From Gammaproteobacteria bacterium (GTDB lineage: Bacteria > Pseudomonadota > Gammaproteobacteria > Steroidobacterales > Foliamicaceae): a DNA stretch of 64,000 nucleotides. The stretch spans positions 2,343 through 66,342 of the forward strand of contig VXSK01000022.1 of assembly GCA_009838035.1 (NCBI GenBank), in the 5' to 3' direction. The translations under genes and the position numbers were made by a program. Below are positions 53,726 through 64,000 of the stretch, piece after piece (position 1 is the first letter of the stretch; every line of letters begins with the position of its first letter). The notes below the pieces were generated by a model that saw nothing but the letters and a program-made list of their open reading frames with translations, was not told where the DNA came from and ran no database searches.

Positions 53726-55516
53726 CTAAGCCGGCTGCCATTCGCGAAGTTGCTGGTCCCGTTTCAGAACCAGTTGCTGGAACATCAGGCCGTCGAATAC
53801 GGATTCGAGCGTGAAGCCGTCCTCGCCGAGACCGGTTGCGGGCAGGGCGCTGCGCGCCTCGTCCTCGAATGTCGCCTTCAGCCGGATGTCTTGCTGGTAT
53901 GCGGAATGCCACCAGTCCAGAAGACGCGACTTTGCGCTGTCCAGCGCATCAGGACTTGGGAGTCGGTCGGACTTGTTCTGATTGGTCCGGCGGTCGCTGG
54001 GCAGCAGATTCCACAAGTCATTGCAAGGCCAGGCGGAGAAGGGGAAGCAATGATCGATTTCATACTTTCTTGTCAGCCGCTTTCCGGTCCATACGCAATG
54101 CAGAGAACTATGAGCACGCAGAGTCTCCGCGCGCCTACGGGCAATATCGGTGTCGTGTTCGGGCGCAAGCCATTCGAGAGCCTTCCAGTGCGCGTCCCAG
54201 GATTGCTGACCCCCACTGGTTCGCTGTTCGTAAGTCCGCATCATCAGTATCCACTCGTTCAAAACCGCAGGCTCCAGCCAGGCGGCATAACGGCCCATGG
54301 CCTGCCAGAGATTGCGCGGCACCGAAAAGGCACCTAACGACCACAGAAAGGCCTCGTCAATGTTGACAGAGTTCTTCAGGCGCACCGGACCGCTGCGAAC
54401 GCAAGGAAATACGGGCTTGTCGCTTCCGGGGTATGTAATGTAGTTGGCCGGCATACGTCGAATGCAGTTCGCTGCCTCGCGAATCGCCAGGATCAAATTT
54501 TTGGCGTCCTTTTCGCTGAAGCGCTGGCCAACGCGCAGATCGAATGGCGATCGGTCCATCAGTCCTCGAAAACCTGCCTTTACGAAGCCCAGGTGCTGAT
54601 TGCCGCGAGGCTGCTGCGGAAGGTCCGCCTTGATCAGCGGCTGGAAGGATCGGATCCAGTAGAGCGCCACCAGTCCGAGGGGCAATTCCACGTGATCATC
54701 GTTCGCTCGGGGACGCGCGAAGCCTGCGGCGCCGTCGGCGATTCGCAACAGCGCCCGCAACAGGGCCAGTTTGTAGGTTGAAGACTTCTGATCATTGAAC
54801 ACAACGTGCCGAAGCAGCGGCAATGCGCCCGTACCGTCGTCCGGCAACTGCAGCCAAACGACCTCCCATGAGACTGCTTTTCGCCCGCTCGCGTCATTGC
54901 TTTTCGTCACACGGATCACCTGCAATCCGTGTCGTCGCGCCAGTCCTTCTATTTCCGCGGAGGTGGCGTGGCTCATGGGGCGTCCCGGCGCGGGCGGGCC
55001 TTGGCGAAGGCTGATCATCATGCTGCCACCGGGGCCGAGCACCGAAACGAGCTTGCGAAAGGCCCGATGTCTCTGGCTGGCCGGCAGATGGTGCCAGACT
55101 GCGCTTACCCACACGAGATCGAAAGAGGATTTGGTTCGCAGCAACTTTTCGAGCGCCGGAAGCCGGTCATCAAGCCAGCGAATTTTCGACGACTTGTGTC
55201 GCGCACTGCCCGCCTCGCGCATCCCGGAAGAAGGCTCGACGGCCACGACACTATGGCCCTGCTCCGCAAACCAGGCGGCATCCCGACCGCTTCCCGCACC
55301 CACGTCCAGCACATTGCCGGAAGACTCGGGCAGCAGATCCGCAACCTGCCGATGCACGCTCCCAAACGGAATTCGTTCGTAGCCGTCGAAGAGCCCCGGC
55401 GCTTTGGCGTTGTACGCCGCCACGACATCGCGCACCCCGAAGCTTTCGGATCGAGCCGTGGCTGAGATGTTCCCCGGACTATTGTCGGAATGGCCGGACT
55501 CTAATTCCGTTGGCAT
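53726..55516 (-). CDS. Class I SAM-dependent methyltransferase fused to an HNH endonuclease
   Basis: N half: LDVGAGSGRDAAW, VAVEPS, WLDDRLP. Middle: KSSTYKLALLRAL. C half: CVWTGKRL...IDHCFPFSAWPCNDLWNLLP...N..KSD. Confidence 0.8.
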   Translation of the reverse strand: MPTELESGHSDNSPGNISATARSESFGVRDVVAAYNAKAPGLFDGYERIPFGSVHRQVADLLPESSGNVLDVGAGSGRDAAWFAEQGHSVVAVEPSSGMREAGSARHKSSKIRWLDDRLPALEKLLRTKSSFDLVWVSAVWHHLPASQRHRAFRKLVSVLGPGGSMMISLRQGPPAPGRPMSHATSAEIEGLARRHGLQVIRVTKSNDASGRKAVSWEVVWLQLPDDGTGALPLLRHVVFNDQKSSTYKLALLRALLRIADGAAGFARPRANDDHVELPLGLVALYWIRSFQPLIKADLPQQPRGNQHLGFVKAGFRGLMDRSPFDLRVGQRFSEKDAKNLILAIREAANCIRRMPANYITYPGSDKPVFPCVRSGPVRLKNSVNIDEAFLWSLGAFSVPRNLWQAMGRYAAWLEPAVLNEWILMMRTYEQRTSGGQQSWDAHWKALEWLAPEHDTDIARRRAETLRAHSSLHCVWTGKRLTRKYEIDHCFPFSAWPCNDLWNLLPSDRRTNQNKSDRLPSPDALDSAKSRLLDWWHSAYQQDIRLKATFEDEARSALPATGLGEDGFTLESVFDGLMFQQLVLKRDQQLREWQPA

Positions 55517-55747
55517 ATTTCGCCGGATGACAAGGCTTGTTCTTGATTCTTGCTGTTGGTCTAAGGCCGCTTACAAGAAGCCTGCATAACCGCAGGCGAC
55601 ACGCACGGCGTTTCCTGACAATAGCATGCAGCGACAAGTGTTGGCCATGCGCAGCTTCTTGTTCGACAGCGCGCTTTCGCCGAGAATCTATCTTGAATGG
55701 AGATTCGCCATGGGGGCGGAGAGGAAGTTCCGAGGAGGGAACAAAGG

Positions 55748-55999
55748 ATGGAGATTCAACTTACCTTGCAGCATATCGGAATGCAGCTGGACGATACGAA
55801 GAAGACGTTTTACACGGAACGTAAGGAACCGAAGCCTGATTCCGAAATGATGGGCCAGCTCGTGGAGGATTTCCGCGACGAACTGGATAAGCTCGATAGT
55901 CAGGTGCACTCGCTGCGCTGCGGGCTGCGGCGAATGGAAAGCACACTGGAAAGGGAAGGCGGAGGGAGTGGCTACAGCACCCGAATCGGGCCGGGATAG
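55748..55999 (+). CDS. Small coiled-coil hypothetical protein overlapping the 3' end of the PIN gene
   Basis: AAAGG before ATG 55748; heptad-like LVEDFRDELDKLDSQVHSL. Coding status unproven. Confidence 0.4.
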   Translation: MEIQLTLQHIGMQLDDTKKTFYTERKEPKPDSEMMGQLVEDFRDELDKLDSQVHSLRCGLRRMESTLEREGGGSGYSTRIGPG

Positions 56000-56358
56000 T
56001 CGCGAAGTTTCTTGTCGGCCGTCAATAGCGTGAGACCTTCAATTTGCGCTTGTGCAATGAGAATTCGATCAAAGGGATCCTTATGGATGTCCGGTAGCAG
56101 ATCAACTGCCACAGCGTGCGCTCCCGTCACAGGGAGTTCGGAGTAACCGTTCTCAAGCAATCCACGCCTGAGAAGGCGCGGGTCGACATTGAAATCGGCG
56201 TGTCCTCGACCGTTCTTGATGGCGACTTCCCATAGTGATGCGGCGCTGAAGAACAGCTCTGTGGCCTTGTCTTGAATCAGGTCGCGCGCTTCCAGCGGTA
56301 GCCGGTCCGGATGACCGGAAGTCCAGAGCAGCACATTTGCGTCGAGAAGAAACATCAC
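55972..56358 (-). CDS. vapC: PIN-domain (VapC-like) toxin
   Basis: LLDANVLLW, SAASLWEVAIK, HKDPFDRILIAQA, LLTAD: the acidic active-site residues are present. Confidence 0.88.
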   Translation of the reverse strand: MMFLLDANVLLWTSGHPDRLPLEARDLIQDKATELFFSAASLWEVAIKNGRGHADFNVDPRLLRRGLLENGYSELPVTGAHAVAVDLLPDIHKDPFDRILIAQAQIEGLTLLTADKKLRDYPGPIRVL

Positions 56359-56408
56359 TTTTTCCCAACCGCTGCCTCGGACGCGCCGGAGTGCGCCGAA
56401 CCCGTATA

Positions 56409-56424
56409 AGCTATTATAATAGCT
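56409..56424. promoter_or_regulatory. Perfect 16-bp palindrome containing TATAAT on both strands, between divergent PIN and integrase genes
   Basis: AGCTATTATAATAGCT equals its own reverse complement. Confidence 0.55.
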
Positions 56425-56579
56425 CTACAAATATACACTTTCCGACTTGCCTCGCGCCTTGCACCGACGCCAAAAATGCGATGTAATACGCCCATATTTC
56501 GAGCCGGGCGCTTTCGATTCGCTTACGGTAAATCGGCATTGTCGAATCCGGCCCGGCACGAACCCGACCGACGAACGCG

Positions 56580-57143
56580 ATGCCCCAGCCAAGTTACCGC
56601 ACCCTTTCAAAGCGCACCGTGGACCGCCTGTCGGTGGACGACAAGGATACCGTGTTCTGGGACCGGGAGCTGCCCGGCTACGGTGTCAGGGTCTATCCGA
56701 GCGGGCGCAAGGTCTACGTGGTGCAGACGCGGGTCGCCGGCAAGTCCCGGCGCATCACCGTGGGCCGTCACGGCGACATCGCGCCCGACCGGGCCCGCAA
56801 GGACGCCGCGAAGATCATCGCGCGCGTCAAGGCTGGGGAGCCGCCGGTCGAGACCAAACCCGAGGCCCCGCCGACCGTCGCCGACCTCGCGGGGCGTTAT
56901 CAGCGCGAGCACGTCGCCATGCATTGCAAGCCCAACACGGTCAAGCACTACGGCCTGATGCTCAAGAAGCACATCGTGCCGCGCCTCGGGGGACTGGAGG
57001 TCGCCGAGGTGGAGCGCAGGGACATCCTCAAGTTCCAGTTCCAGTTGAGCGACATGCCCACGGTGGCCAACCGCTGCGTGGACATGCTGGTCAAGATGTT
57101 CAAACAGGTACATGATTTCCGCCTAGCGGCGGCGTTATCCTAG
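56580..57143 (+). pseudogene. Truncated tyrosine integrase (arm-binding and core-binding domains only)
   Basis: VFWDRELPGYGVRVYPSGRKVY...RITVGRHG (arm-DNA-binding/DUF4102-like), TVADLAGRY, HIVPRLG, ANRCVDML. Similarity stops near 57102, before any R-H-R-H-Y catalytic domain. Confidence 0.8.
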
Positions 57144-57482
57144 ATAATTCATAAATAACAATCGGTTACAAACCTTCCGTTTCGCTGGCTCTCTAGGCCC
57201 TCCATTCTCAGGTACCAATTAGGTACCACTTCATTTCCAAGTCAGGCGCACGCTTGCGCCGCCAATCCGCAGGCTGATTCGGCCATCCCGCCGCGCAACC
57301 GCGCATTCGATTCGCGCCGACGCAGGCCCCGACCCGTTCCACGACAACGATCCGCCGTTCGCCGTCTGCCGGCCTTGCGCCGGCGAGAGGGGAGTTTCGG
57401 CCGGAAGCGGGGGGGTCGGCGGCGCTCCGGGAGAGGGGCGCTGCCGCCGTTCCCTTTCACCTGACCGAAGGAGCATCGAACC

Positions 57483-57809
57483 ATGCAGGCGGCACTCGCA
57501 CCGCGCGGCGACGCGCGCACCTATCTCACGCACTTCGTCGGCGGGGGGCTCGATGACGAGCGCTACGTCGTCGAGACCTTCCGCTCGCTGGCCAACGGCG
57601 ACATCGTTCCCGTTCAGGCGGACGGTTCGAGGCCCAGGGGCCGGCGCAAGGCGCGCGGCCGGATCCTGCCGCTGAAGGCGGTCGAGAAGCTGCGTCCGGC
57701 CCGCGACGAGATCATCATCGCGACGGGGGTGAAGCGGCGCAACTCCGGTTGCCAGGTCTGGGGTTGGCGCGCACTCGGTCTGTTTCTGGAGCGCCGTCAG
57801 AAAGGCTGA
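57483..57809 (+). CDS. Hypothetical protein (108 aa)
   Basis: Strong GAAGGAG RBS; host-like codon usage. Confidence 0.6.
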   Translation: MQAALAPRGDARTYLTHFVGGGLDDERYVVETFRSLANGDIVPVQADGSRPRGRRKARGRILPLKAVEKLRPARDEIIIATGVKRRNSGCQVWGWRALGLFLERRQKG

Positions 57810-57895
57810 GTTTCCGCATTTGCGGACGTCCAGCCGGCCCGTCGCCGGTTGGACATCCGCAGTCCCGTCCCCCCCTGTTACACCTGGAGCAGCCC

Positions 57896-58906
57896 ATGGC
57901 CTACCGTGACGTTGAGCAACGCCGACGACGCGACCGCGAGCGGTTCCTCGAGCGAACCGAACGACGCCGGGCGGCCGGGCTTTGCCCTCGGTGCGGAGTT
58001 CGCCGGCCCGAGAACGGACTCGCGCTGTGCGGCGAGTGCGCCGGGAAGCGCCGGGCATCGGAGCGGGCGCGCGACGCGCGCCGGCGGGCCGCCGGCATCA
58101 AGCGCCGCCGCAACGTGGTCGGCGAACGGGCGAGGGACCGCCGGCGGACCGCCGAGTGGATCGCACGGGGGGTCTGCACGAAGTGCGGCGTCAATCAACC
58201 TGAGCCCGGTCGCCGGCTCTGCGCCGCATGCGGCGAGAAGCGACGCGCCGCCGAGCGCGCCCGATACGCCCGGGCCAAACGCCGGGGCGAGCTCTATGGC
58301 GGCCGGAATCCGCAGGTCAAGCGCAAGGCCGGACGGGCGGCCAGCGCCCGGCGCCGGCAGGCCCGCCTCGACGGCGGGACATGCGTGCGCTGCGGGCGTC
58401 GGCTGCCCGTCGAGGGCGGCGCCACCTGCCAGCCGTGCCGTGAGATTCGGCAGGCCGCGGAGCGCGAGCTGTACGCCTCCCGGAAGGCCGCCGGGCTTTG
58501 CGTATCCTGTGGCCGGCCGGCTTTTGCGGGCGAGGCCCGTTGCGGCGTGTGCGCGACCGTCGATGGCCAGAGGCGAAACCGAGACCGAAAGAACGCCACC
58601 TCCCGACGCCGGTATTGGGAACGGCGAGAGGCTGGCCGCTGCACGGACTGCAACCGGCCGAGCTTCGGGGCGTCGCGCTGCCCGGGCTGCGCGAAACGCT
58701 CCTACGAGCGCTCCGATTTCTTCCGCGGCATCCCGGCGTGGGATCCGAGCTTCACCGTCATCGAGCTGGCCACCGGAGAGACGCATGGCCCGTTCGATTC
58801 CGAAGCCGATGCCGTCGCCGAACTGGCCTTCGCCGGCTTGTCGTTCGACGAGGTGGAGATCGTGAACGACGCGCCGGTCACGGCGCGCTACGCCGCATGG
58901 GCCTGA
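57896..58906 (+). CDS. Arg-rich protein with five tandem CxxC-x(9-11)-CxxC units and an acidic C-terminal domain
   Basis: CPRC/CGEC, CTKC/CAAC, CVRC/CQPC, CVSC/CGVC, CTDC/CPGC. GGAG RBS before ATG 57896. Confidence 0.75.
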   Translation: MAYRDVEQRRRRDRERFLERTERRRAAGLCPRCGVRRPENGLALCGECAGKRRASERARDARRRAAGIKRRRNVVGERARDRRRTAEWIARGVCTKCGVNQPEPGRRLCAACGEKRRAAERARYARAKRRGELYGGRNPQVKRKAGRAASARRRQARLDGGTCVRCGRRLPVEGGATCQPCREIRQAAERELYASRKAAGLCVSCGRPAFAGEARCGVCATVDGQRRNRDRKNATSRRRYWERREAGRCTDCNRPSFGASRCPGCAKRSYERSDFFRGIPAWDPSFTVIELATGETHGPFDSEADAVAELAFAGLSFDEVEIVNDAPVTARYAAWA

Positions 58907-59032
58907 ACGCTTGTCGCCCTTCGGCGGGAGGGATTCCAGAGAGTAGGAGGACAGCGAGTGCCGGGTAGGCGTCCGGGAGCGCGGAGGGAGAACGGCTCCC
59001 CCGGCCCGGGCGCGACACCTGAAGGAGCCCCC

Positions 59033-59209
59033 ATGTTCGTACCCGACACCGACTACGACCCCATCGCCCCGGCCACCGGCTGCCTGCTCGCCGAGATCGG
59101 CATCGACATCGACGCCGTGCGCGAGACCCTCGCCGACGACCTCGCCCACCACTGTCCCGACCGCGAGGTCCCGGATACCGGGAGATGGAGGGAAGCGGGA
59201 GAAGGGTGA
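59033..59209 (+). CDS. Small acidic hypothetical protein (58 aa)
   Basis: GAAGGAG RBS; MFVPDTDYDPIAPATGCLLAEIGIDIDAVRETLADDL... Confidence 0.5.
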   Translation: MFVPDTDYDPIAPATGCLLAEIGIDIDAVRETLADDLAHHCPDREVPDTGRWREAGEG

Positions 59210-59292
59210 ACGGACGAGGGGCCGGAGCGAGGGCTTCCGGTTCCCGACCGTTCGCCAACCCATCGTCATCACTCAGCAGAAGGAGAATCCCC

Positions 59293-59751
59293 ATGAGCTT
59301 CGGATTGAACAGGGCAGAAGTCATCGGCCGGCTCGGCGCCGACGTGACCGTGAATCACCTGGTGTCGGGGGGCCGCGTGGCCAATCTCAGCATCGCCACC
59401 GACGAGTCGTACATCGACCGGGAAGGCCAGAAGGTCGACAAGACCGAGTGGCACCGCGTCGTCACGTTCCAGCCCGGGCTGGTGGACATGCTGGCCAGGC
59501 ACGCGCGGAAGGGCCGGCTGGTCTACGTCGCGGGCAAGCTGCAGACGCGGCGCTGGCGCAAGGACGGCGAGGCCTCCGACCGCTTCTCGACCGAGATCCT
59601 CCTGGCCCCCGGTTCCCGCATCCAGTTCCTGGATCGGCCGGGGGCTCCCAACGGCAACGGCGCGCACGCCGAGGCCGAGGCGGCGGCCAACGGCTCGACC
59701 GTGCCGGAGGGTGGCGAAGCCACCGACCCGGACATGTCGATCCCGTTCTGA
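59293..59751 (+). CDS. ssb: Single-stranded DNA-binding protein (mobile-element type)
   Basis: NRAEVIGRLGAD, ANLSIAT, TEWHRVV, LVYVAGKLQTRRW, acidic tail ending DMSIPF. Confidence 0.92.
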   Translation: MSFGLNRAEVIGRLGADVTVNHLVSGGRVANLSIATDESYIDREGQKVDKTEWHRVVTFQPGLVDMLARHARKGRLVYVAGKLQTRRWRKDGEASDRFSTEILLAPGSRIQFLDRPGAPNGNGAHAEAEAAANGSTVPEGGEATDPDMSIPF

Positions 59752-59949
59752 GGCTGCGCCTCTCCCGCCCCCGAATAGGGCCGTCGCTTCGCGCGTCGGC
59801 CCTATTCTCATGCTGCCCACTTCGAGTCCTCACGCCGGGTTCACGGAGCGACCCCGTGAGCTGGAGTGAGAGTGAAGCCCGTTGCGGGCGAACGCCGCAC
59901 GGCCGGGAGGGAGGCCGGGCGGCATCGAATCCCGAGACAGGAGCCCACC

Positions 59950-60177
59950 ATGAGTTACGTCACCTTCAAGCGCGTCCGCCCGGACGAATCCCGCATCTAC
60001 GACGCCGAGGGCGACTACGTCGGCGACGTGTACGCCCACGACGACATCCTCAACCCCGGCCAGCGGGTCTACCTGGTCCTGCTCGAGGACGACCCCCGGG
60101 GCTGGGCTACGGTGCGTGACCGCAACCGCATCCGAGAGATCGCCGAGCAGCGTCTTCTGTCACATCCGTACCGCTGA
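59950..60177 (+). CDS. Small hypothetical protein (75 aa)
   Basis: CAGGAG RBS; MSYVTFKRVRPDESRIYDAEGDYVGDVY...; high GC at third codon positions. Confidence 0.6.
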   Translation: MSYVTFKRVRPDESRIYDAEGDYVGDVYAHDDILNPGQRVYLVLLEDDPRGWATVRDRNRIREIAEQRLLSHPYR

Positions 60178-60473
60178 GTGCGCGGCGGTGCTGTCGCACG
60201 AGCCGGCGAGGTCCATCGTCAAGCCCGGCACCGTGCTCGCCGACAGGCCCAAAAAAGAGGTCGTGCCAATCCCAAACAAAGCTCTCTCCTCTGTATGTCC
60301 CATCGTGCCACACGTGCTCACTGCGCCAACCCCTTCGGGGTTCTCCACTGCGTTGCGACCGCTGCGCGGTGGCTGCGCTGCGCGCGCGTGTCCCAATGAA
60401 ACATACGCCGGAGCGAGCCACGCAACGGCATCACGGGCCGGTTGGCCCTACCACTCAAGACAGGAGACTCTCA

Positions 60474-61400
60474 ATGTACGACATCGACCACATCGACACC
60501 TTCCAGGCGCAATCCCCCACCGCGGTGATCTGCGAGAACGCGGCACTGTACGGCGCCACCCCCGAGCGCGGCGAGTTCGATCCTCGCGAGATCTGGGACC
60601 GCGACGGTGCCGTCGCGGCCGTCGGCGAAGCGTTCCGCCTCCTCGCCGAGCACGTGACGCCCGACGGGTTCCAACTCGCCGACGAACGCGAGCACCTGCT
60701 CTGGGGGTTCGCGAATACTCTCGACGCACAGGTCCGCCGGATCGACCGGCGCATCGACAGGCTGATGCCCAAGATGCGCGACCTGCAATCCTCACAGGAC
60801 GGCTCCGAAGTCAAGGCGAGAGAACTCGAACTCACGACCGACCGCGCCCGCCACCTCGGCGACCGCCGCGACGCCTTCGAGCAACTGCGCGACACCGCCG
60901 CCGACGCCTACCGCGCCGCCACCGGCGACACCTGGCGGCCGCGGCGCGGCAGCCACGTCTCCCAGACCCGCAAGCTGACTTCCGCAGCCATCGACGCCCG
61001 CGACTTCCAGCGCGCAAGAAAGGACCGCGAGATACAAGCGCACCTGCCCGACGGCACCCTGGTCGCCGTCGCCGGCGGCAAGACCGTCAACCATCCCGAT
61101 GCGGTATCGCGCAGCCTGGACAAGGCCCGCGCCAAGTACCCCGACCTGGTCCTGGTGCACGGCGGCGGCCCCGGCGTCGACAAGATCGCTGCCCAGTGGG
61201 CCGAGCGCCACGGCGTGCACCAGATCGTGTGCAAGCCCGACTGGCAGCGGTATGGACGGGCCGCACCGTTCCGGCGCAACGACGAGCTGCTGAACCTGCT
61301 GCCCAAGGGCGTCATCGCCTTCCCCGGCAGCGGCATCACCGGCAACCTCGTCGACAAGGCCAAGTCCATGGGCATCCCGGTGATGCGGGCCGCTGCATAG
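60474..61400 (+). CDS. SLOG-superfamily (DUF2493/YspA-like) domain protein with N-terminal helical extension
   Basis: C-terminal TLVAVAGG...LVLVHGGGPGVDKIAAQWA...PDW.RYGRAAPFRRNDELL...IAFPGSGITGNLV.KA..MGIPV. Confidence 0.8.
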   Translation: MYDIDHIDTFQAQSPTAVICENAALYGATPERGEFDPREIWDRDGAVAAVGEAFRLLAEHVTPDGFQLADEREHLLWGFANTLDAQVRRIDRRIDRLMPKMRDLQSSQDGSEVKARELELTTDRARHLGDRRDAFEQLRDTAADAYRAATGDTWRPRRGSHVSQTRKLTSAAIDARDFQRARKDREIQAHLPDGTLVAVAGGKTVNHPDAVSRSLDKARAKYPDLVLVHGGGPGVDKIAAQWAERHGVHQIVCKPDWQRYGRAAPFRRNDELLNLLPKGVIAFPGSGITGNLVDKAKSMGIPVMRAAA

Positions 61401-61795
61401 CCGCCACGACAACGGGCCGTGCCGTTCGCCGGTGCGGCCCGTTCCGCTCTTGTGTCAGCAGCCGGTACGGCGATGCGGGCCGCGTCGCGCCCGCTCGCCG
61501 TCACCGGGTACGCCTCGCTTGGCCTCGCCGGCTGCGCAGGCATCGGCCATCGCCCCGGCGCGTCGCTCGAACACTGCGTGCTTCGCCAGTGTCGGCTTCG
61601 CCGTTCACCGGGCTCCGCACTCCCGTCGATGGCGGTGTCGATCCCGGTGCGCACATCGCGGTCCGCTTCGCCGTGCACCGGCTCGCGCACCGGTGCGGGC
61701 GCTCGTGCCGGGTCAAGTGCGCGCCGAACCGCGTCCGTCGCCGCATAGCTTTCGTCCAAATCCGCTGTAATACGGCGTAGTACGGAAAAACACCC

Positions 61796-62193
61796 GTGTA
61801 TGCTCCAGAGCACACGCCCGATTCTCCGGAGAACCGCCGTATGCTGTCAGCATACATCGCCGTCAGGTCCGCGCTCGAAACGCCTCGGCTGCTTCCTGGA
61901 TTACGGCCCTGCAACTGCCCCCGGCTCACGGCTCAGGCTCGTATAGGGTCTGTCCAATCCCTCCCGCTCAAGCGCCGCTCGGGCTAAACCGTTGGTTATC
62001 AACGGTTTTCCATCCCCATGGGTTGAGCTTCCTCCTCCGGTTCCGTCTCGACGGCGGAGCCGGTTCGCGTTCACACCTCACGCACCTCGGTGCCCGTCGA
62101 GGCAAGCGCGCGCCTGTCGTGTTTCGCCTGCGTTTTCAACGACAGGAGCCGCCTGGCGGTTGCCGGGAAGAGTGGATGCTCTGGAGCATACAC
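61796..62193. repeat. 398-bp non-coding segment bounded by a perfect 17-bp inverted repeat, with internal palindromes
   Basis: GTGTATGCTCCAGAGCA 61796-61812; TGCTCTGGAGCATACAC 62177-62193; internal GTATGCTG-T-CAGCATAC 61839-61855. Confidence 0.7.
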
Positions 62194-62676
62194 AGGGAAC
62201 AAAATTCGAATATATACAACGGCATCAATAACTTGCGTCAGTCAGGACTCCGTTTACCGAAGAGACCGACCATAGGGATTGTCAAACCGGGCAGTCAAAG
62301 TGACTGCGCGCCCGGTTGCGCTGGCCGTTGACAGCACTCAATCTGACTGCGTGGCTGAAGCCGCCGTAGGGCTGGCCCCATCGCGCCGAGCCAGGCCCGT
62401 CGGTGCGCCCGGCGCTACGGTTGTCGGCGAAGCTGTCGTACGGTGAGGTGACCGAATTTGCTCAGGAGGGCGCCAAGAGCCGATGGTGGAAACGTTGACG
62501 GAGACCATCCGGGCCACGCCGGATCAATGAGCCGCGACACGAAAGCCCCGATCAACGCAGCGTGGCTGGTAATATGGTTGTTCTTCAAATGATCGAAACG
62601 CATCCCCGAGCGGACCAAAGCAGGATTGGCCTGAGAACTAAGGGGACCTCACCACCAATTCAGGGAGACGGCACTC

Positions 62677-64000
62677 TTGTCTGAGTCGACTGCGGCGGAC
62701 TTCCATCAATTCTTTACCGAGCTGAGTGGCAGCAAGGACCCGCGCCGCTGGCAGTGCGAGCTATCCGATCCGACGGAATGCGGGAACCGCCTGATTCGCA
62801 TACCCACGGGCGTCGGAAAAACGCTCGGCGTGCTTGCGGCTTGGGCTTGGCATCGCGTCAGACAGCGCAACGAAGATTGGCCGCGCCGCCTGATCTGGTG
62901 CTTGCCGATGCGCGTGCTCGTCGAACAGATAGAGAGCGAAGTCCGATCAGCGCTTCAACGTCTCGAAGTGCTATGGGACGGTGAGAGCCCCCATGACGGC
63001 AGGGTTGGTGTCCACTTGCTAATGGGCGGCGCCGACGCCGGCCAGTGGCATCTCCACCCCGAAGGCGACGCGGTGCTGATTGGCACGCAAGACATGCTGC
63101 TTTCTCGCGCCTTGAACCGTGGCTACGCAAGCCCTAGAGCGCGGTGGCCCATGGAGTTCGGGCTGCTGAACCAGGACGCCCTTTGGGTGATGGACGAAGT
63201 GCAGTTGATGGATGTGGGCCTCGCAACGTCGGGGCAGCTTCAGGCATTTCGGTGCGAGGATCGGTGCGCCAAAAGGTCGTTGCGGCCCTGTTTCACATGG
63301 TGGATGAGCGCGACGTTGCAGCCCGCCTGGTTGGAGAGGAGTCCCGACACGACCGATCTGACCGGAGAGCTTGCCCGTAACACGCACCAAATCCGATCTG
63401 CAGAGCAGGTGGGAGATCTATGGGATGAAATGACCAAACCCTTGGAGGTCGTTCCGTTTGCCAATCCGAAGGCGCTTGCTCGGGATGTCTCACAACGTCA
63501 CCACCGTTGCGGATGCGGAAAGAAGGGGCCGACGCTGGTCGTGCTCAACACGGTGGAGCGCGCGGTTGACGTATGGACGGCGCTTCGACGGGACAAGACG
63601 CTGAAGGACGCGGGTACGGACATTCGCTTGGTGCACAGCCGGTTCCGCCCGGCCGAACGCCGAGATTGGCGCAGAGAGTTCCTTGATCGAGGGGGTTGCG
63701 GCCCGGATACGAACCGCATCATCGTCTCCACGCAGATAATCGAAGCCGGCGTGGATATCTCCGCGTCCCTTCTGATCACTGAGCTTGCGCCGTGGCCAAG
63801 CTTGGTTCAGCGATTCGGCCGCTGCGCGCGATGGGGTGGCATGGGCCAAGTCATCGTTGCGGACTTCAAGCACAAGAGTGACAAGAAAGCCTCTCCCTAC
63901 ACAAAGGATGAGCTCGACGTCTCGCGCGATGCCTGCAATGCGTTGCCGGATGTCGGACCGGTCCATCTGGAAAGGTACGAGAACAAGCACGAAGCACTGC
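62677..64000 (+). CDS. cas3: CRISPR-associated helicase Cas3, helicase-first (type I-G/I-U-like), partial; runs off the window
   Basis: Manual translation of frame 1 is open from TTG 62677 (AGGGAG RBS) to the window end: IPTGVGKT, PRRLIWCLPMRVLVEQ, LMGG, IGTQDMLLSRALNRGY, WVMDEVQLM, MSAT, NTVERA, HSRFRPAER, STQIIEAGVDIS, LVQRFGRCAR. No HD domain ahead of the helicase. Confidence 0.85.
   Translation, partial: MSESTAADFHQFFTELSGSKDPRRWQCELSDPTECGNRLIRIPTGVGKTLGVLAAWAWHRVRQRNEDWPRRLIWCLPMRVLVEQIESEVRSALQRLEVLWDGESPHDGRVGVHLLMGGADAGQWHLHPEGDAVLIGTQDMLLSRALNRGYASPRARWPMEFGLLNQDALWVMDEVQLMDVGLATSGQLQAFRCEDRCAKRSLRPCFTWWMSATLQPAWLERSPDTTDLTGELARNTHQIRSAEQVGDLWDEMTKPLEVVPFANPKALARDVSQRHHRCGCGKKGPTLVVLNTVERAVDVWTALRRDKTLKDAGTDIRLVHSRFRPAERRDWRREFLDRGGCGPDTNRIIVSTQIIEAGVDISASLLITELAPWPSLVQRFGRCARWGGMGQVIVADFKHKSDKKASPYTKDELDVSRDACNALPDVGPVHLERYENKHEAL

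Follow-up and report, generated by a model that had tools for sequence, protein, structure and literature searches.

In conjugative elements, the leading-region gene families of one study were all found to be oriented for transcription from the transferred strand (T-strand), with Ssb frequent among them and anti-defence genes enriched (Samuel et al. 2024, PMC11541004), and GC-rich leading regions have been reported (PMC13478746). In F, the relaxase TraI is attached to the 5' phosphate at the nick, and its substrate reads GCAAAAACTTGTTTTTGC GTGGGGTGT^GGT, that is ...TTTTTGCGTGGGGTGT^GGT (PMC3074121). The R388/TrwC substrate, GCGCACCGAAAGGTGCGTATTGTCT^ATAG, comprises the proximal arm (nt 12-16), a single-stranded recognition sequence (nt 17-25) and a purine at position 26 (PMC4176350). 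Integrative elements that carry an origin of transfer (oriT) only, the iOriT elements, have been described from six nosocomial species (Ares-Arroyo et al. 2026, bioRxiv 10.64898/2026.01.13.699239). Here, a 64,000-nt stretch of contig VXSK01000022.1 (assembly GCA_009838035.1, positions 2,343 to 66,342), deposited as a Gammaproteobacteria bacterium and referred to below as the window, was analysed around a cassette of six genes. Positions 57361-62200 very probably represent the oriT and leading region of a member of an undescribed F-type (MPF_F/MOBF; MPF, mating-pair formation) family of integrative conjugative elements (ICEs) from uncultured, mostly alphaproteobacterial sponge-associated bacteria. 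The kind of feature, a MOBF leading region with its oriT, is a known one; the sponge-symbiont ICE family that carries it is undescribed. The assignment is carried by gene order, by a conserved and covarying nick motif, by the polarity of that motif and by linkage to relaxase and type IV secretion system (T4SS) genes in relatives.

The initial annotation of this DNA had listed six co-oriented open reading frames (ORFs) on the plus strand, each preceded by GGAG (mostly AGGAG) and including Ssb and a SLOG protein, and had described them as pointing at a hairpin-rich non-coding zone. All six ORFs were confirmed at the positions given for them (Table 1), GGAG was found 6-10 nt 5' of the ATG in six of six and AGGAG in five of six, and Ssb and the SLOG protein match PF00436 (E = 8e-22) and PF10686 (YAcAr/DUF2493, C-terminal, E = 1.8e-23), respectively, in Pfam. 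Comparison with relatives revealed an excess of third-codon-position substitutions in every one of the six ORFs, weakest in the 58-aa ORF (0.23/0.20/0.28), indicating that all are real genes under purifying selection; the 58-aa ORF was also called as a gene in independent assemblies. The GC content of the cassette is 70%, against 60-61% in the island flanks. The zone downstream (61401-62676) is indeed non-coding, showing many indels and no three-nucleotide periodicity against the closest relative (L012), and it contains a MOBF-type nick site of the right polarity. A hidden protein gene in this zone was ruled out by the same indels and lack of codon periodicity.

Conserved k-mers of the leading-side part of the oriT region were present in 16-21 of 28 loci, and a k-mer scan 3' of the SLOG gene identified TCACACCTCACGCA (62071-62084), which recurs in 25 of 28 relatives with at most two mismatches. 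The minus strand reads 5'-GCACC-GA-GGTGC-GTGAGGTGT^GAAC here, with the nick predicted between 62073 and 62072. The motif could be aligned at 31 sites, at 24 of which the 5-bp stem is perfect. The fourth stem pair covaries (C:G at 11 sites, T:A at 6 and G:C at 10), and the proposed register yields 4.5 of 5 Watson-Crick pairs, compared with 1.7-1.9 of 5 at control offsets. The hairpin directly abuts a near-invariant GTnnGGTGT^G, the exact F 9-mer GTGGGGTGT occurs in six relatives, and motif plus hairpin are found only once in the window. The covarying hairpin and the near-invariant core together provide strong evidence for a functional MOBF nic region. The layout known from MOBF oriTs, an inverted repeat followed by about 9 nt of conserved recognition sequence, the nick and a purine, can be read in the sequence. 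As in R388, F and R100, the proximal arm ends in ...TGC and is followed by nine nucleotides of the GTnnnnTGT/GTCT type, the nick and a purine, and the arms GCACC/GGTGC are identical to those of R388; unlike in F, the stem of the window has 5 bp rather than 8 and the loop in its family is 2-3 nt long.

The nick motif lies on the strand opposite to the cassette at every aligned site, 300-2450 nt past the SLOG stop codon. With TraI on the 5' phosphate, that end leads into the recipient and the direction of entry is set; since the minus strand is the one nicked, what follows 3' of the nick is 62072 down to 61400 and then the cassette, which would thus enter first. The six ORFs being on the plus strand, the transferred strand would be the template of all of them. 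The cassette therefore adjoins the predicted oriT on its first-transferred side. In this position, in its T-strand template, in its ssb gene and GC-richness, in its strong translation signals and in a candidate T-strand hairpin upstream of a gene, the cassette resembles plasmid leading regions. It differs from them in lacking psiB, ardA/ardB/klcA and methyltransferase genes, in containing gene families without a match among 72,556 sequenced plasmids, in that its genes form a fixed operon with conserved synteny and not a variable island, in being chromosomal or integrative rather than plasmid-borne, and in that neither sequence similarity to Frpo nor a -35/-10 promoter was recognised in the cassette.

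Related loci were obtained from context look-ups and from a scan of one genome per species, giving a non-redundant set of 44. Their hosts are uncultured and mostly Alphaproteobacteria (Rhodospirillales, Thalassobaculaceae, Paracoccaceae, Defluviicoccus), with a few bins labelled otherwise, and the sequencing runs containing the window are sponge metagenomes. The order 108-aa, zinc-ribbon, Ssb, SLOG was found in 31 loci, often with near-identical spacing, so that the shared gene order is far beyond chance. All six genes were detectable in order in 10 of the 44; the 108-aa gene was present in 40 and the 58-aa gene was detected in 26, and in some relatives toprim and DUF4326 genes are inserted into the cassette. 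The flanks vary from locus to locus and are rich in toxin-antitoxin pairs, insertion sequence (IS) elements and defence systems, the last including GmrSD, MmeI, XamI, type I restriction-modification (R-M), Dnd, AbiE, SNF2/DUF1156 and CRISPR. In OZ241752.1, the 2.9-Mb chromosome of a metagenome-assembled genome (MAG), three copies of the cassette were found (L025, L031 and L053), two of which are separated by only about 30 kb containing defence cargo and a relaxase, an arrangement of elements in tandem. Over the SLOG gene (60346-61347), the contigs of run X1 add up to a depth of 90-116, compared with approximately 54 in the flanks, consistent with several related copies of this gene in one sponge metagenome.

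Flanking ORFs were clustered over all loci and the recurrent families were annotated using Pfam. A P4-type integrase family lies upstream in the same orientation in 17 loci, a NikA-like ribbon-helix-helix (RHH) protein of about 125 aa lies downstream in 13, and a TrwC relaxase-helicase of about 1050 aa (PF08751, E = 1.8e-84), adjoined by a coupling protein of about 695 aa, was found in 6. An RHH-anchored look-up yielded the complete layout in three assemblies, in which TraF, TraH, TraG_N, coupling protein, TrwC and RHH are followed, after a gap of approximately 1.5-4.6 kb, by the inverted cassette (SLOG ... 108 aa), with cargo and an integrase further on within the stretch read in one of the three. 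Loci L056-L058, L032, L033 and L043 run TraF/TraH/TraG_N, coupling protein, TrwC, RHH, oriT, SLOG ... 108 aa, cargo and integrase, and TrwC stands beside the nick motif in these as well as in L025 and L037. The relaxase, coupling protein and T4SS genes beside the cassette indicate that it belongs to an F-type (MPF_F/MOBF) ICE; the initial annotation had proposed locating the relaxase and oriT of homologous cassettes in intact ICEs, and a relaxase and a predicted oriT were located beside them. In the intact relatives, the tra genes are located across the nick from the cassette and would be the last to enter, and their operon reads toward oriT (coupling protein, relaxase, RHH, nic), unlike in F and R388, where it reads away. 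Most of the relatives found have no relaxase within 10 kb, yet they keep the cassette and the nick site.

The copy in the window belongs with this last group. Its P4-type integrase is a fragment, with 46% identity over 184 aa to the full-length integrase of L032, and tblastn searches for RHH, relaxase, coupling protein, TraH and TraG_N gave no match in the window or in the adjoining 11.5 kb past its end (approximately 75 kb in all), which extends an earlier observation that the window holds no relaxase or T4SS gene. The interval from the integrase fragment at 56580 to the integrases approximately 19 kb downstream is free of relaxase and MPF genes. With its integrase truncated and no DNA transfer and replication (Dtr) or MPF genes, the window copy is not classed as an ICE, only its relatives are, and its sequence supports the view that it is non-autonomous; a remnant or non-autonomous leading region read toward oriT had been the initial interpretation, and it agrees with the polarity of the nick site, with the side on which the relatives carry their tra genes and with the absence of transfer genes here. 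The island thus has an oriT motif and no relaxase or MPF genes, the combination that defines oriT-only elements. As in iOriT elements, it is a chromosomal island with oriT but without relaxase or mating-pair genes, defence and counter-defence genes surround the oriT, and relaxase-less copies outnumber putative helpers in the family. Unlike in those elements, the host is an uncultured sponge symbiont, the hitcher shares its whole leading region with the helpers, and the integrase of this copy is truncated, so that its mobility is only putative.

From these data we infer the following scheme for nicking, early expression, protein function and present-day mobility. A TrwC/TraI-type relaxase would bind the small hairpin at 62082-62093, nick the minus strand between 62073 and 62072 and pilot the strand 5' to 3' into the recipient. 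First to enter would be the SLOG gene, with its stop codon 672 nt from the nick, followed in order by the 75-aa gene, ssb, the 58-aa gene, the zinc-ribbon gene and the 108-aa gene. As the transferred strand would serve as template, all six genes would be expressible early; expression may start at the T-strand-favoured hairpin upstream of the SLOG gene, and the strong ribosome-binding sites and conserved RNA-sense leader hairpins would probably tune translation. The products would most likely handle or protect the incoming single strand, a role that an Ssb, a DprA-like SLOG domain and two very basic putative nucleic-acid binders would fit, and the small acidic 58-aa protein would be the most plausible anti-restriction or DNA-mimic candidate. 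This copy could move only if relaxase and pore were supplied in trans by a related element, as for an 'iOriT'-type hitcher; otherwise it would be a recent fossil.

The Ssb is ordinary, with an acidic C-terminal tail (...DMSIPF), and also matches TIGR00621 (93 bits, over the family cut-off) and phrog_44. The SLOG protein is built from a helical N-terminal domain of approximately 190 aa and the C-terminal YAcAr/DUF2493 SLOG domain. Relatives with up to 47% identity were found on 740 alphaproteobacterial plasmids, 471 of them conjugative, and on an Agrobacterium plasmid the relative lies approximately 9 kb from traG-traD-traC/traA. The closest described gene neighbourhoods are the DUF2493/SLOG-ssb-toprim-DUF4326-ParB/ArdC clusters of alphaproteobacterial repABC plasmids and ICEs, which share the SLOG architecture (up to 47% identity over 97-99%) and, on the Agrobacterium plasmid, a mostly co-oriented arrangement at that distance from traA/traCDG; unlike the present locus, the rhizobial clusters go with MOBQ/Ti-type relaxases and MPF_T and do not contain the zinc-ribbon, 108-, 58- and 75-aa genes. 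In phages, matches to the SLOG protein (274 records) are confined to the SLOG domain and are never full length, and 'DprA-like' is the depositors' label on phage genes that have the SLOG domain only.

The zinc-ribbon protein (336 aa, 20 Cys) is Arg-rich, with a net charge of +39.5 and a pI of 10.8, and combines five zinc ribbons (CxxC...CxxC) with a conserved domain of approximately 60 aa at its C-terminus; Pfam gave the protein only a weak, sub-threshold match to DZR_2. It has at least 844 homologues, nearly all of 336-339 aa and multi-copy in some genomes, every one from metagenomic or MAG assemblies. The 108-aa protein is basic (pI 11.2); its AlphaFold2 (AF2) model (predicted local distance difference test, pLDDT, 80) shows six beta-strands, one short helix and a C-terminal helix, and H17, E76, T81-G82, Q91, W93-G94 and R104 are invariant (alignment A5). 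Both proteins are likely nucleic-acid binders, judging by their sequences. The 58-aa protein is acidic (pI 4.1). The AF2 model of the 75-aa protein (pLDDT 94, alignment A6), confident like that of the 108-aa protein, is a five-stranded beta-sheet with a C-terminal helix, for which small uncharacterised phage proteins in BFVD were the sole fold matches (template modelling score, TM, 0.58-0.68). Among 72,556 plasmids in PLSDB, no match was found to the zinc-ribbon, 108-aa or 75-aa proteins, and the zinc-ribbon protein had none in phages. Sequence and profile searches of the PDB with the 108-aa, 75-aa, SLOG and zinc-ribbon proteins gave nothing significant, Foldseek searches with the AF2 models identified no PDB relative of the 108-aa protein and no significant PDB match of the 75-aa protein, and none of the three small ORFs matched Pfam, NCBIfam or PHROG. 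No known anti-defence or psi gene was recognised among the six in the Pfam, NCBIfam, PHROG and PDB searches.

The three small ORFs had been put forward in the initial annotation as anti-defence or anti-CRISPR candidates, notable for the nearby cas3, and the whole cassette might accordingly be an operon directed against the adjacent type I-G system or the methyltransferase-HNH gene. Leading regions are enriched for such genes (PMC11541004), the 58-aa protein is small and acidic like many DNA mimics, and defence systems surround many of the cassette loci. However, the ORFs are fixed in order while the neighbouring defence cargo differs, which would not be expected of a specific inhibitor; they resemble no known family or fold, with no homology to known Acr or Ard proteins for the 108- and 75-aa proteins (Pfam, NCBIfam, PHROG, PDB and fold searches) and no family match for the 58-aa protein; and none of the spacers of the array matches the related loci compared. 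The CRISPR-Cas genes, moreover, are carried as cargo by the same island, on its last-transferred side, and their inhibition would thus be self-defeating. No evidence was found to support the earlier proposal, and the proximity of cas3 lends it no weight; the small ORFs are conserved core genes of the family, judged by their distribution over the loci, and not variable accessory genes, and they have no relatives of known function. An operon of this specific kind is very unlikely. The constancy of the cassette beside variable defence cargo makes general establishment functions likelier than a specific anti-CRISPR role, and coating or protection of the entering strand, priming, and broad anti-restriction or SOS control may be named as candidates. 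A replication-recombination module of a prophage or satellite, unrelated to conjugation, is an extremely improbable explanation. It could draw on the PHROG matches of Ssb and the SLOG protein, on the 'DprA-like' SLOG genes of phages and on the likeness of the 75-aa fold to small phage ORFans, but the phage similarity covers the SLOG domain only and does not extend to the zinc-ribbon protein, the F/R388-type nick site is conserved beside the cassette, and integrase, RHH, TrwC, coupling protein and TraG/TraH/TraF genes recur in the flanks of the 44 loci, whereas phage structural or replication genes do not. Homologues in prophage or replication modules, an outcome that the initial annotation had foreseen as contradicting it, were not what was encountered; they adjoin oriT instead.

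The main alternative agrees that the locus is a leading region with its oriT and differs only on present-day activity: the cassette and oriT might be a dead fossil, left after loss of the tra genes and half of the integrase and without present function, the ORFs being intact merely because the loss is recent. This is a real possibility, although we hold it to be doubtful. The truncation of the integrase at residue 187, the absence of RHH, relaxase, coupling protein and T4SS genes from approximately 75 kb, and a 99.8% identical block with another left flank elsewhere, a sign of recent rearrangement, all favour it. Against it, the six ORFs, the nick hairpin, the 9-nt core and the 20-nt inverted repeat are all intact, and most relatives lacking a nearby relaxase keep cassette and nick site, which fits selection on iOriT-like hitchers. 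A number of observations also tell against an active oriT and leading region as set out above. Nicking at the predicted site is deduced from sequence alone, and pairing of all five positions would leave the window hairpin a loop of 2 nt, so that a 4-bp stem with a 4-nt loop is more realistic; a promoter scan detected no sigma-70-like -35/-10 on the plus strand or in the hairpins; in the window alone, z-scores give no preference for either strand of the hairpin upstream of the SLOG gene; four of the six proteins are functionally undemonstrated; and, with its integrase truncated, the copy may no longer excise.

The reading of 57361-62200 as oriT and leading region provides a testable oriT, with nick position, strand and recognition hairpin, for a seemingly undescribed, common and multi-copy ICE family of sponge-associated bacteria, and accounts for a 1.3-kb 'empty' zone and six hypothetical genes in the annotation. 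Leading-region biology has so far been almost confined to enterobacterial plasmids, and the locus extends its reach to chromosomal elements in uncultured Alphaproteobacteria. The four conserved first-entering proteins are candidates for establishment or counter-defence roles, and hitch-hiking on oriT is suggested as a route by which defence islands, including CRISPR-Cas, could spread. A bolder proposal, which we consider rather unlikely as a whole, is that cassette and oriT form a 'hitcher backbone' carrying defence islands on F-type ICEs, that the four unknown proteins (zinc-ribbon, 108-, 58- and 75-aa) are a new establishment and counter-defence toolkit, that the T-strand hairpin upstream of the SLOG gene is a new, non-enterobacterial class of single-strand promoter from which they are expressed, and that purine-loop RNA hairpins tune expression before three genes. 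If this were true, a complete type I-G CRISPR-Cas system and R-M genes would ride between sponge symbionts.

Table 1. Coordinates of features in and beyond the window (window numbering unless a contig is named)
Feature	Position	Strand	Remarks
Truncated P4-type integrase	56580-57143	+	N-terminal 187 aa; Arm-DNA-bind_3 + Phage_int_SAM_3, no catalytic domain
S0 leader	57361-57482	+	~20-bp GC-rich hairpin with purine-rich GGGAGAG-type loop, 5' of first gene
108-aa ORF	57483-57809	+	First gene of cassette
S1 hairpin	57821-57861 (spacer 57810-57895)	+	Intercistronic; -19 kcal/mol, z = -4.1, 0/200 shuffles as stable
336-aa multi-zinc-ribbon ORF	57896-58906	+	
S2 spacer	58907-59032	+	Hairpin with GAGAGGGAG-type loop; conserved in 19 loci
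58-aa ORF	59033-59209	+	
S3 spacer	59210-59292	+	Hairpin with GGAGAGAG-type loop, 5' of ssb
Ssb ORF, 152 aa	59293-59751	+	
Post-ssb stem-loop	59773-59807	+	11-bp perfect stem just past ssb stop
75-aa ORF	59950-60177	+	
S5 hairpin upstream of SLOG gene	~60281-60418	-	~140 nt; core conserved in 23 loci
SLOG/DUF2493 ORF, 308 aa	60474-61400	+	
Leading-side part of predicted oriT	61401-62072	.	Non-coding; conserved block CGCTCAAGCGCCGC at 61965
30-nt direct repeat	61591-61620 and 61661-61690	.	Repeat search
20-nt inverted repeat bracketing predicted nick	61793-61812 and 62177-62196	.	Arms 95% complementary
Predicted nic region	62063-62102	-	Hairpin 62082-62093, 9-nt GTGAGGTGT 62073-62081, then nick
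Minus-strand sequence carrying predicted nic region		-	5'-GGGCACCGAGGTGCGTGAGGTGTGAACGCGAACC-3'
Nick-region motif			TGCGTnnGGTGTGA
cas3 start	62677-64000	+	Cas3-like_C_2, DEAD, Helicase_C (Pfam); type I-G (I-U)
CRISPR array	L054:11781-12608 (~5.7 kb past window end)		~11 repeats (GCTTCAATGAGGCCGGGGCGCGCGCGCCCCGGATGC), spacers ~32 nt
Three far-end integrases	L054:18037-21218		384-aa (-), then 208-aa fragment (+), 401-aa (+)

The initial description of long structured spacers in the cassette was borne out only in part. Significant plus-strand folding was found for S1 and S4 (59752-59949; z = -2.7 when folded over 59752-59900), and for S0, S2, S3 and the core of S5 it is conservation that was found, equal at the DNA level to that of the genes, in 19-29 loci. 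S0 has a DNA identity of 72-87% in 29 loci, and the same hairpin was predicted in 10 of 10 loci folded. Because the RNAalifold consensus of S0 was weak, its GC-rich alignment being ambiguous, per-sequence folds and strand-asymmetry tests were used instead. The plus strand folded better in 32 of 38 loci with DNA parameters and in 34 of 38 with RNA parameters, and kept this advantage in 28 of 38 (p = 0.006) when composition was controlled by shuffling, which argues for an RNA-level leader rather than a T-strand structure. S3, with a match in 24 loci, is 77-87% identical among the best-matching ones. Alifold energies also favoured the plus strand in S2 (-19.1 vs -8.2) and S3 (-9.4 vs 0). A recurring hairpin type, a GC stem with a purine-rich GGAGAGAG / GAGAGGGAG loop, was observed at 57400-57440, 58960-59000 and 59225-59255. 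These purine-loop hairpins precede three different cassette genes and are conserved across loci; they might act as a common operator or as a site of RNA binding, with the Arg-rich zinc-ribbon protein as one conceivable ligand.

The S5 hairpin behaves differently from the leader hairpins. Its minus strand is the more stable at 28 of 29 sites (including two chance motif matches that were later dropped), with means of -44.1 and -37.5 kcal/mol for the minus and plus strands, as many positions form G:T pairs on the minus strand and A:C mismatches on the plus strand. Shuffle-controlled z-scores were -2.40 (minus) and -1.53 (plus), with 24 of 27 loci in agreement (p = 1.6e-4). Being more stable in the transferred strand across the family, this hairpin is a candidate single-strand promoter or priming signal. 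Sigma-54 or extended -10 promoters were read into the S5 core ad hoc, but these readings were unconvincing and were dropped. An Rfam scan of 55500-63000 at E <= 1 returned no match.

In L015 and L050, oriT is followed by a 103-aa RHH-like gene, and 62286-62532, beyond the nick in the window, has 72-78% identity to the sequence that precedes this gene and extends into it; the window retains no corresponding ORF, and an RHH remnant at approximately 62458 was not confirmed. This segment may be a remnant truncated by the cas3 block. The cas3 gene is followed by a 724-aa gene, Cas_GSU0053, a 561-aa gene, the array, cas2 and cas4/cas1, the array lying between the type I-G effector genes and the inverted cas2-cas4/cas1, and then by a XhoI-type restriction enzyme with its methyltransferase and by the integrases. 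From their position relative to the predicted nick, the CRISPR-Cas and R-M genes are cargo on its last-transferred side. The spacers of the array have no match in the window or in any related locus compared. Tandem integrase ORFs were also seen in L027, L039, L043, L047 and L052, and the clustering of integrases suggests that elements are arrayed at a single insertion hotspot or that the integrases are paired.

On the left side, independent assemblies and two sequencing runs share the junction between integrase fragment and cassette. Contig L004 and two further runs have another left flank, joined to a block that starts at 57312, continues rightwards and matches at 99.8% identity, and 57312-57360 is consequently taken to be a recent recombination joint; runs X3 and X4 have no depth left of approximately 57340. 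Excision joints were not found in the contigs of four sponge-metagenome runs, where a second genomic context of the block was all that emerged, and no att repeats were defined; intact integrases are present at the far end of the island (L054:18037-21218). The left flank in L004 (1-7000) holds a HigBA-like pair, a Na+/H+ antiporter and a second, inverted and more diverged leading-region set, comprising SSB, toprim/DUF7146, DUF4326, a homologue of the 75-aa protein and a SLOG protein at 76% identity. In the window, the truncated integrase is followed by an AT-rich junction (57144-57360) that is not common to other loci and includes a terminator-like hairpin, GGTACCAATTAGGTACC (57211-57227), and flanking CTAG...CTCTAG motifs; an IS end, an att remnant and a deletion scar are candidates for its origin. 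Upstream of the integrase fragment, the GC content of 53726-56358 is lower (approximately 60%), and this segment encodes a 596-aa S-adenosylmethionine (SAM)-methyltransferase-HNH fusion as well as a PIN (VapC-like) toxin, upstream of which no antitoxin is obvious; in the gene calls, an 83-aa plus-strand ORF overlaps the toxin gene at its 3' end.

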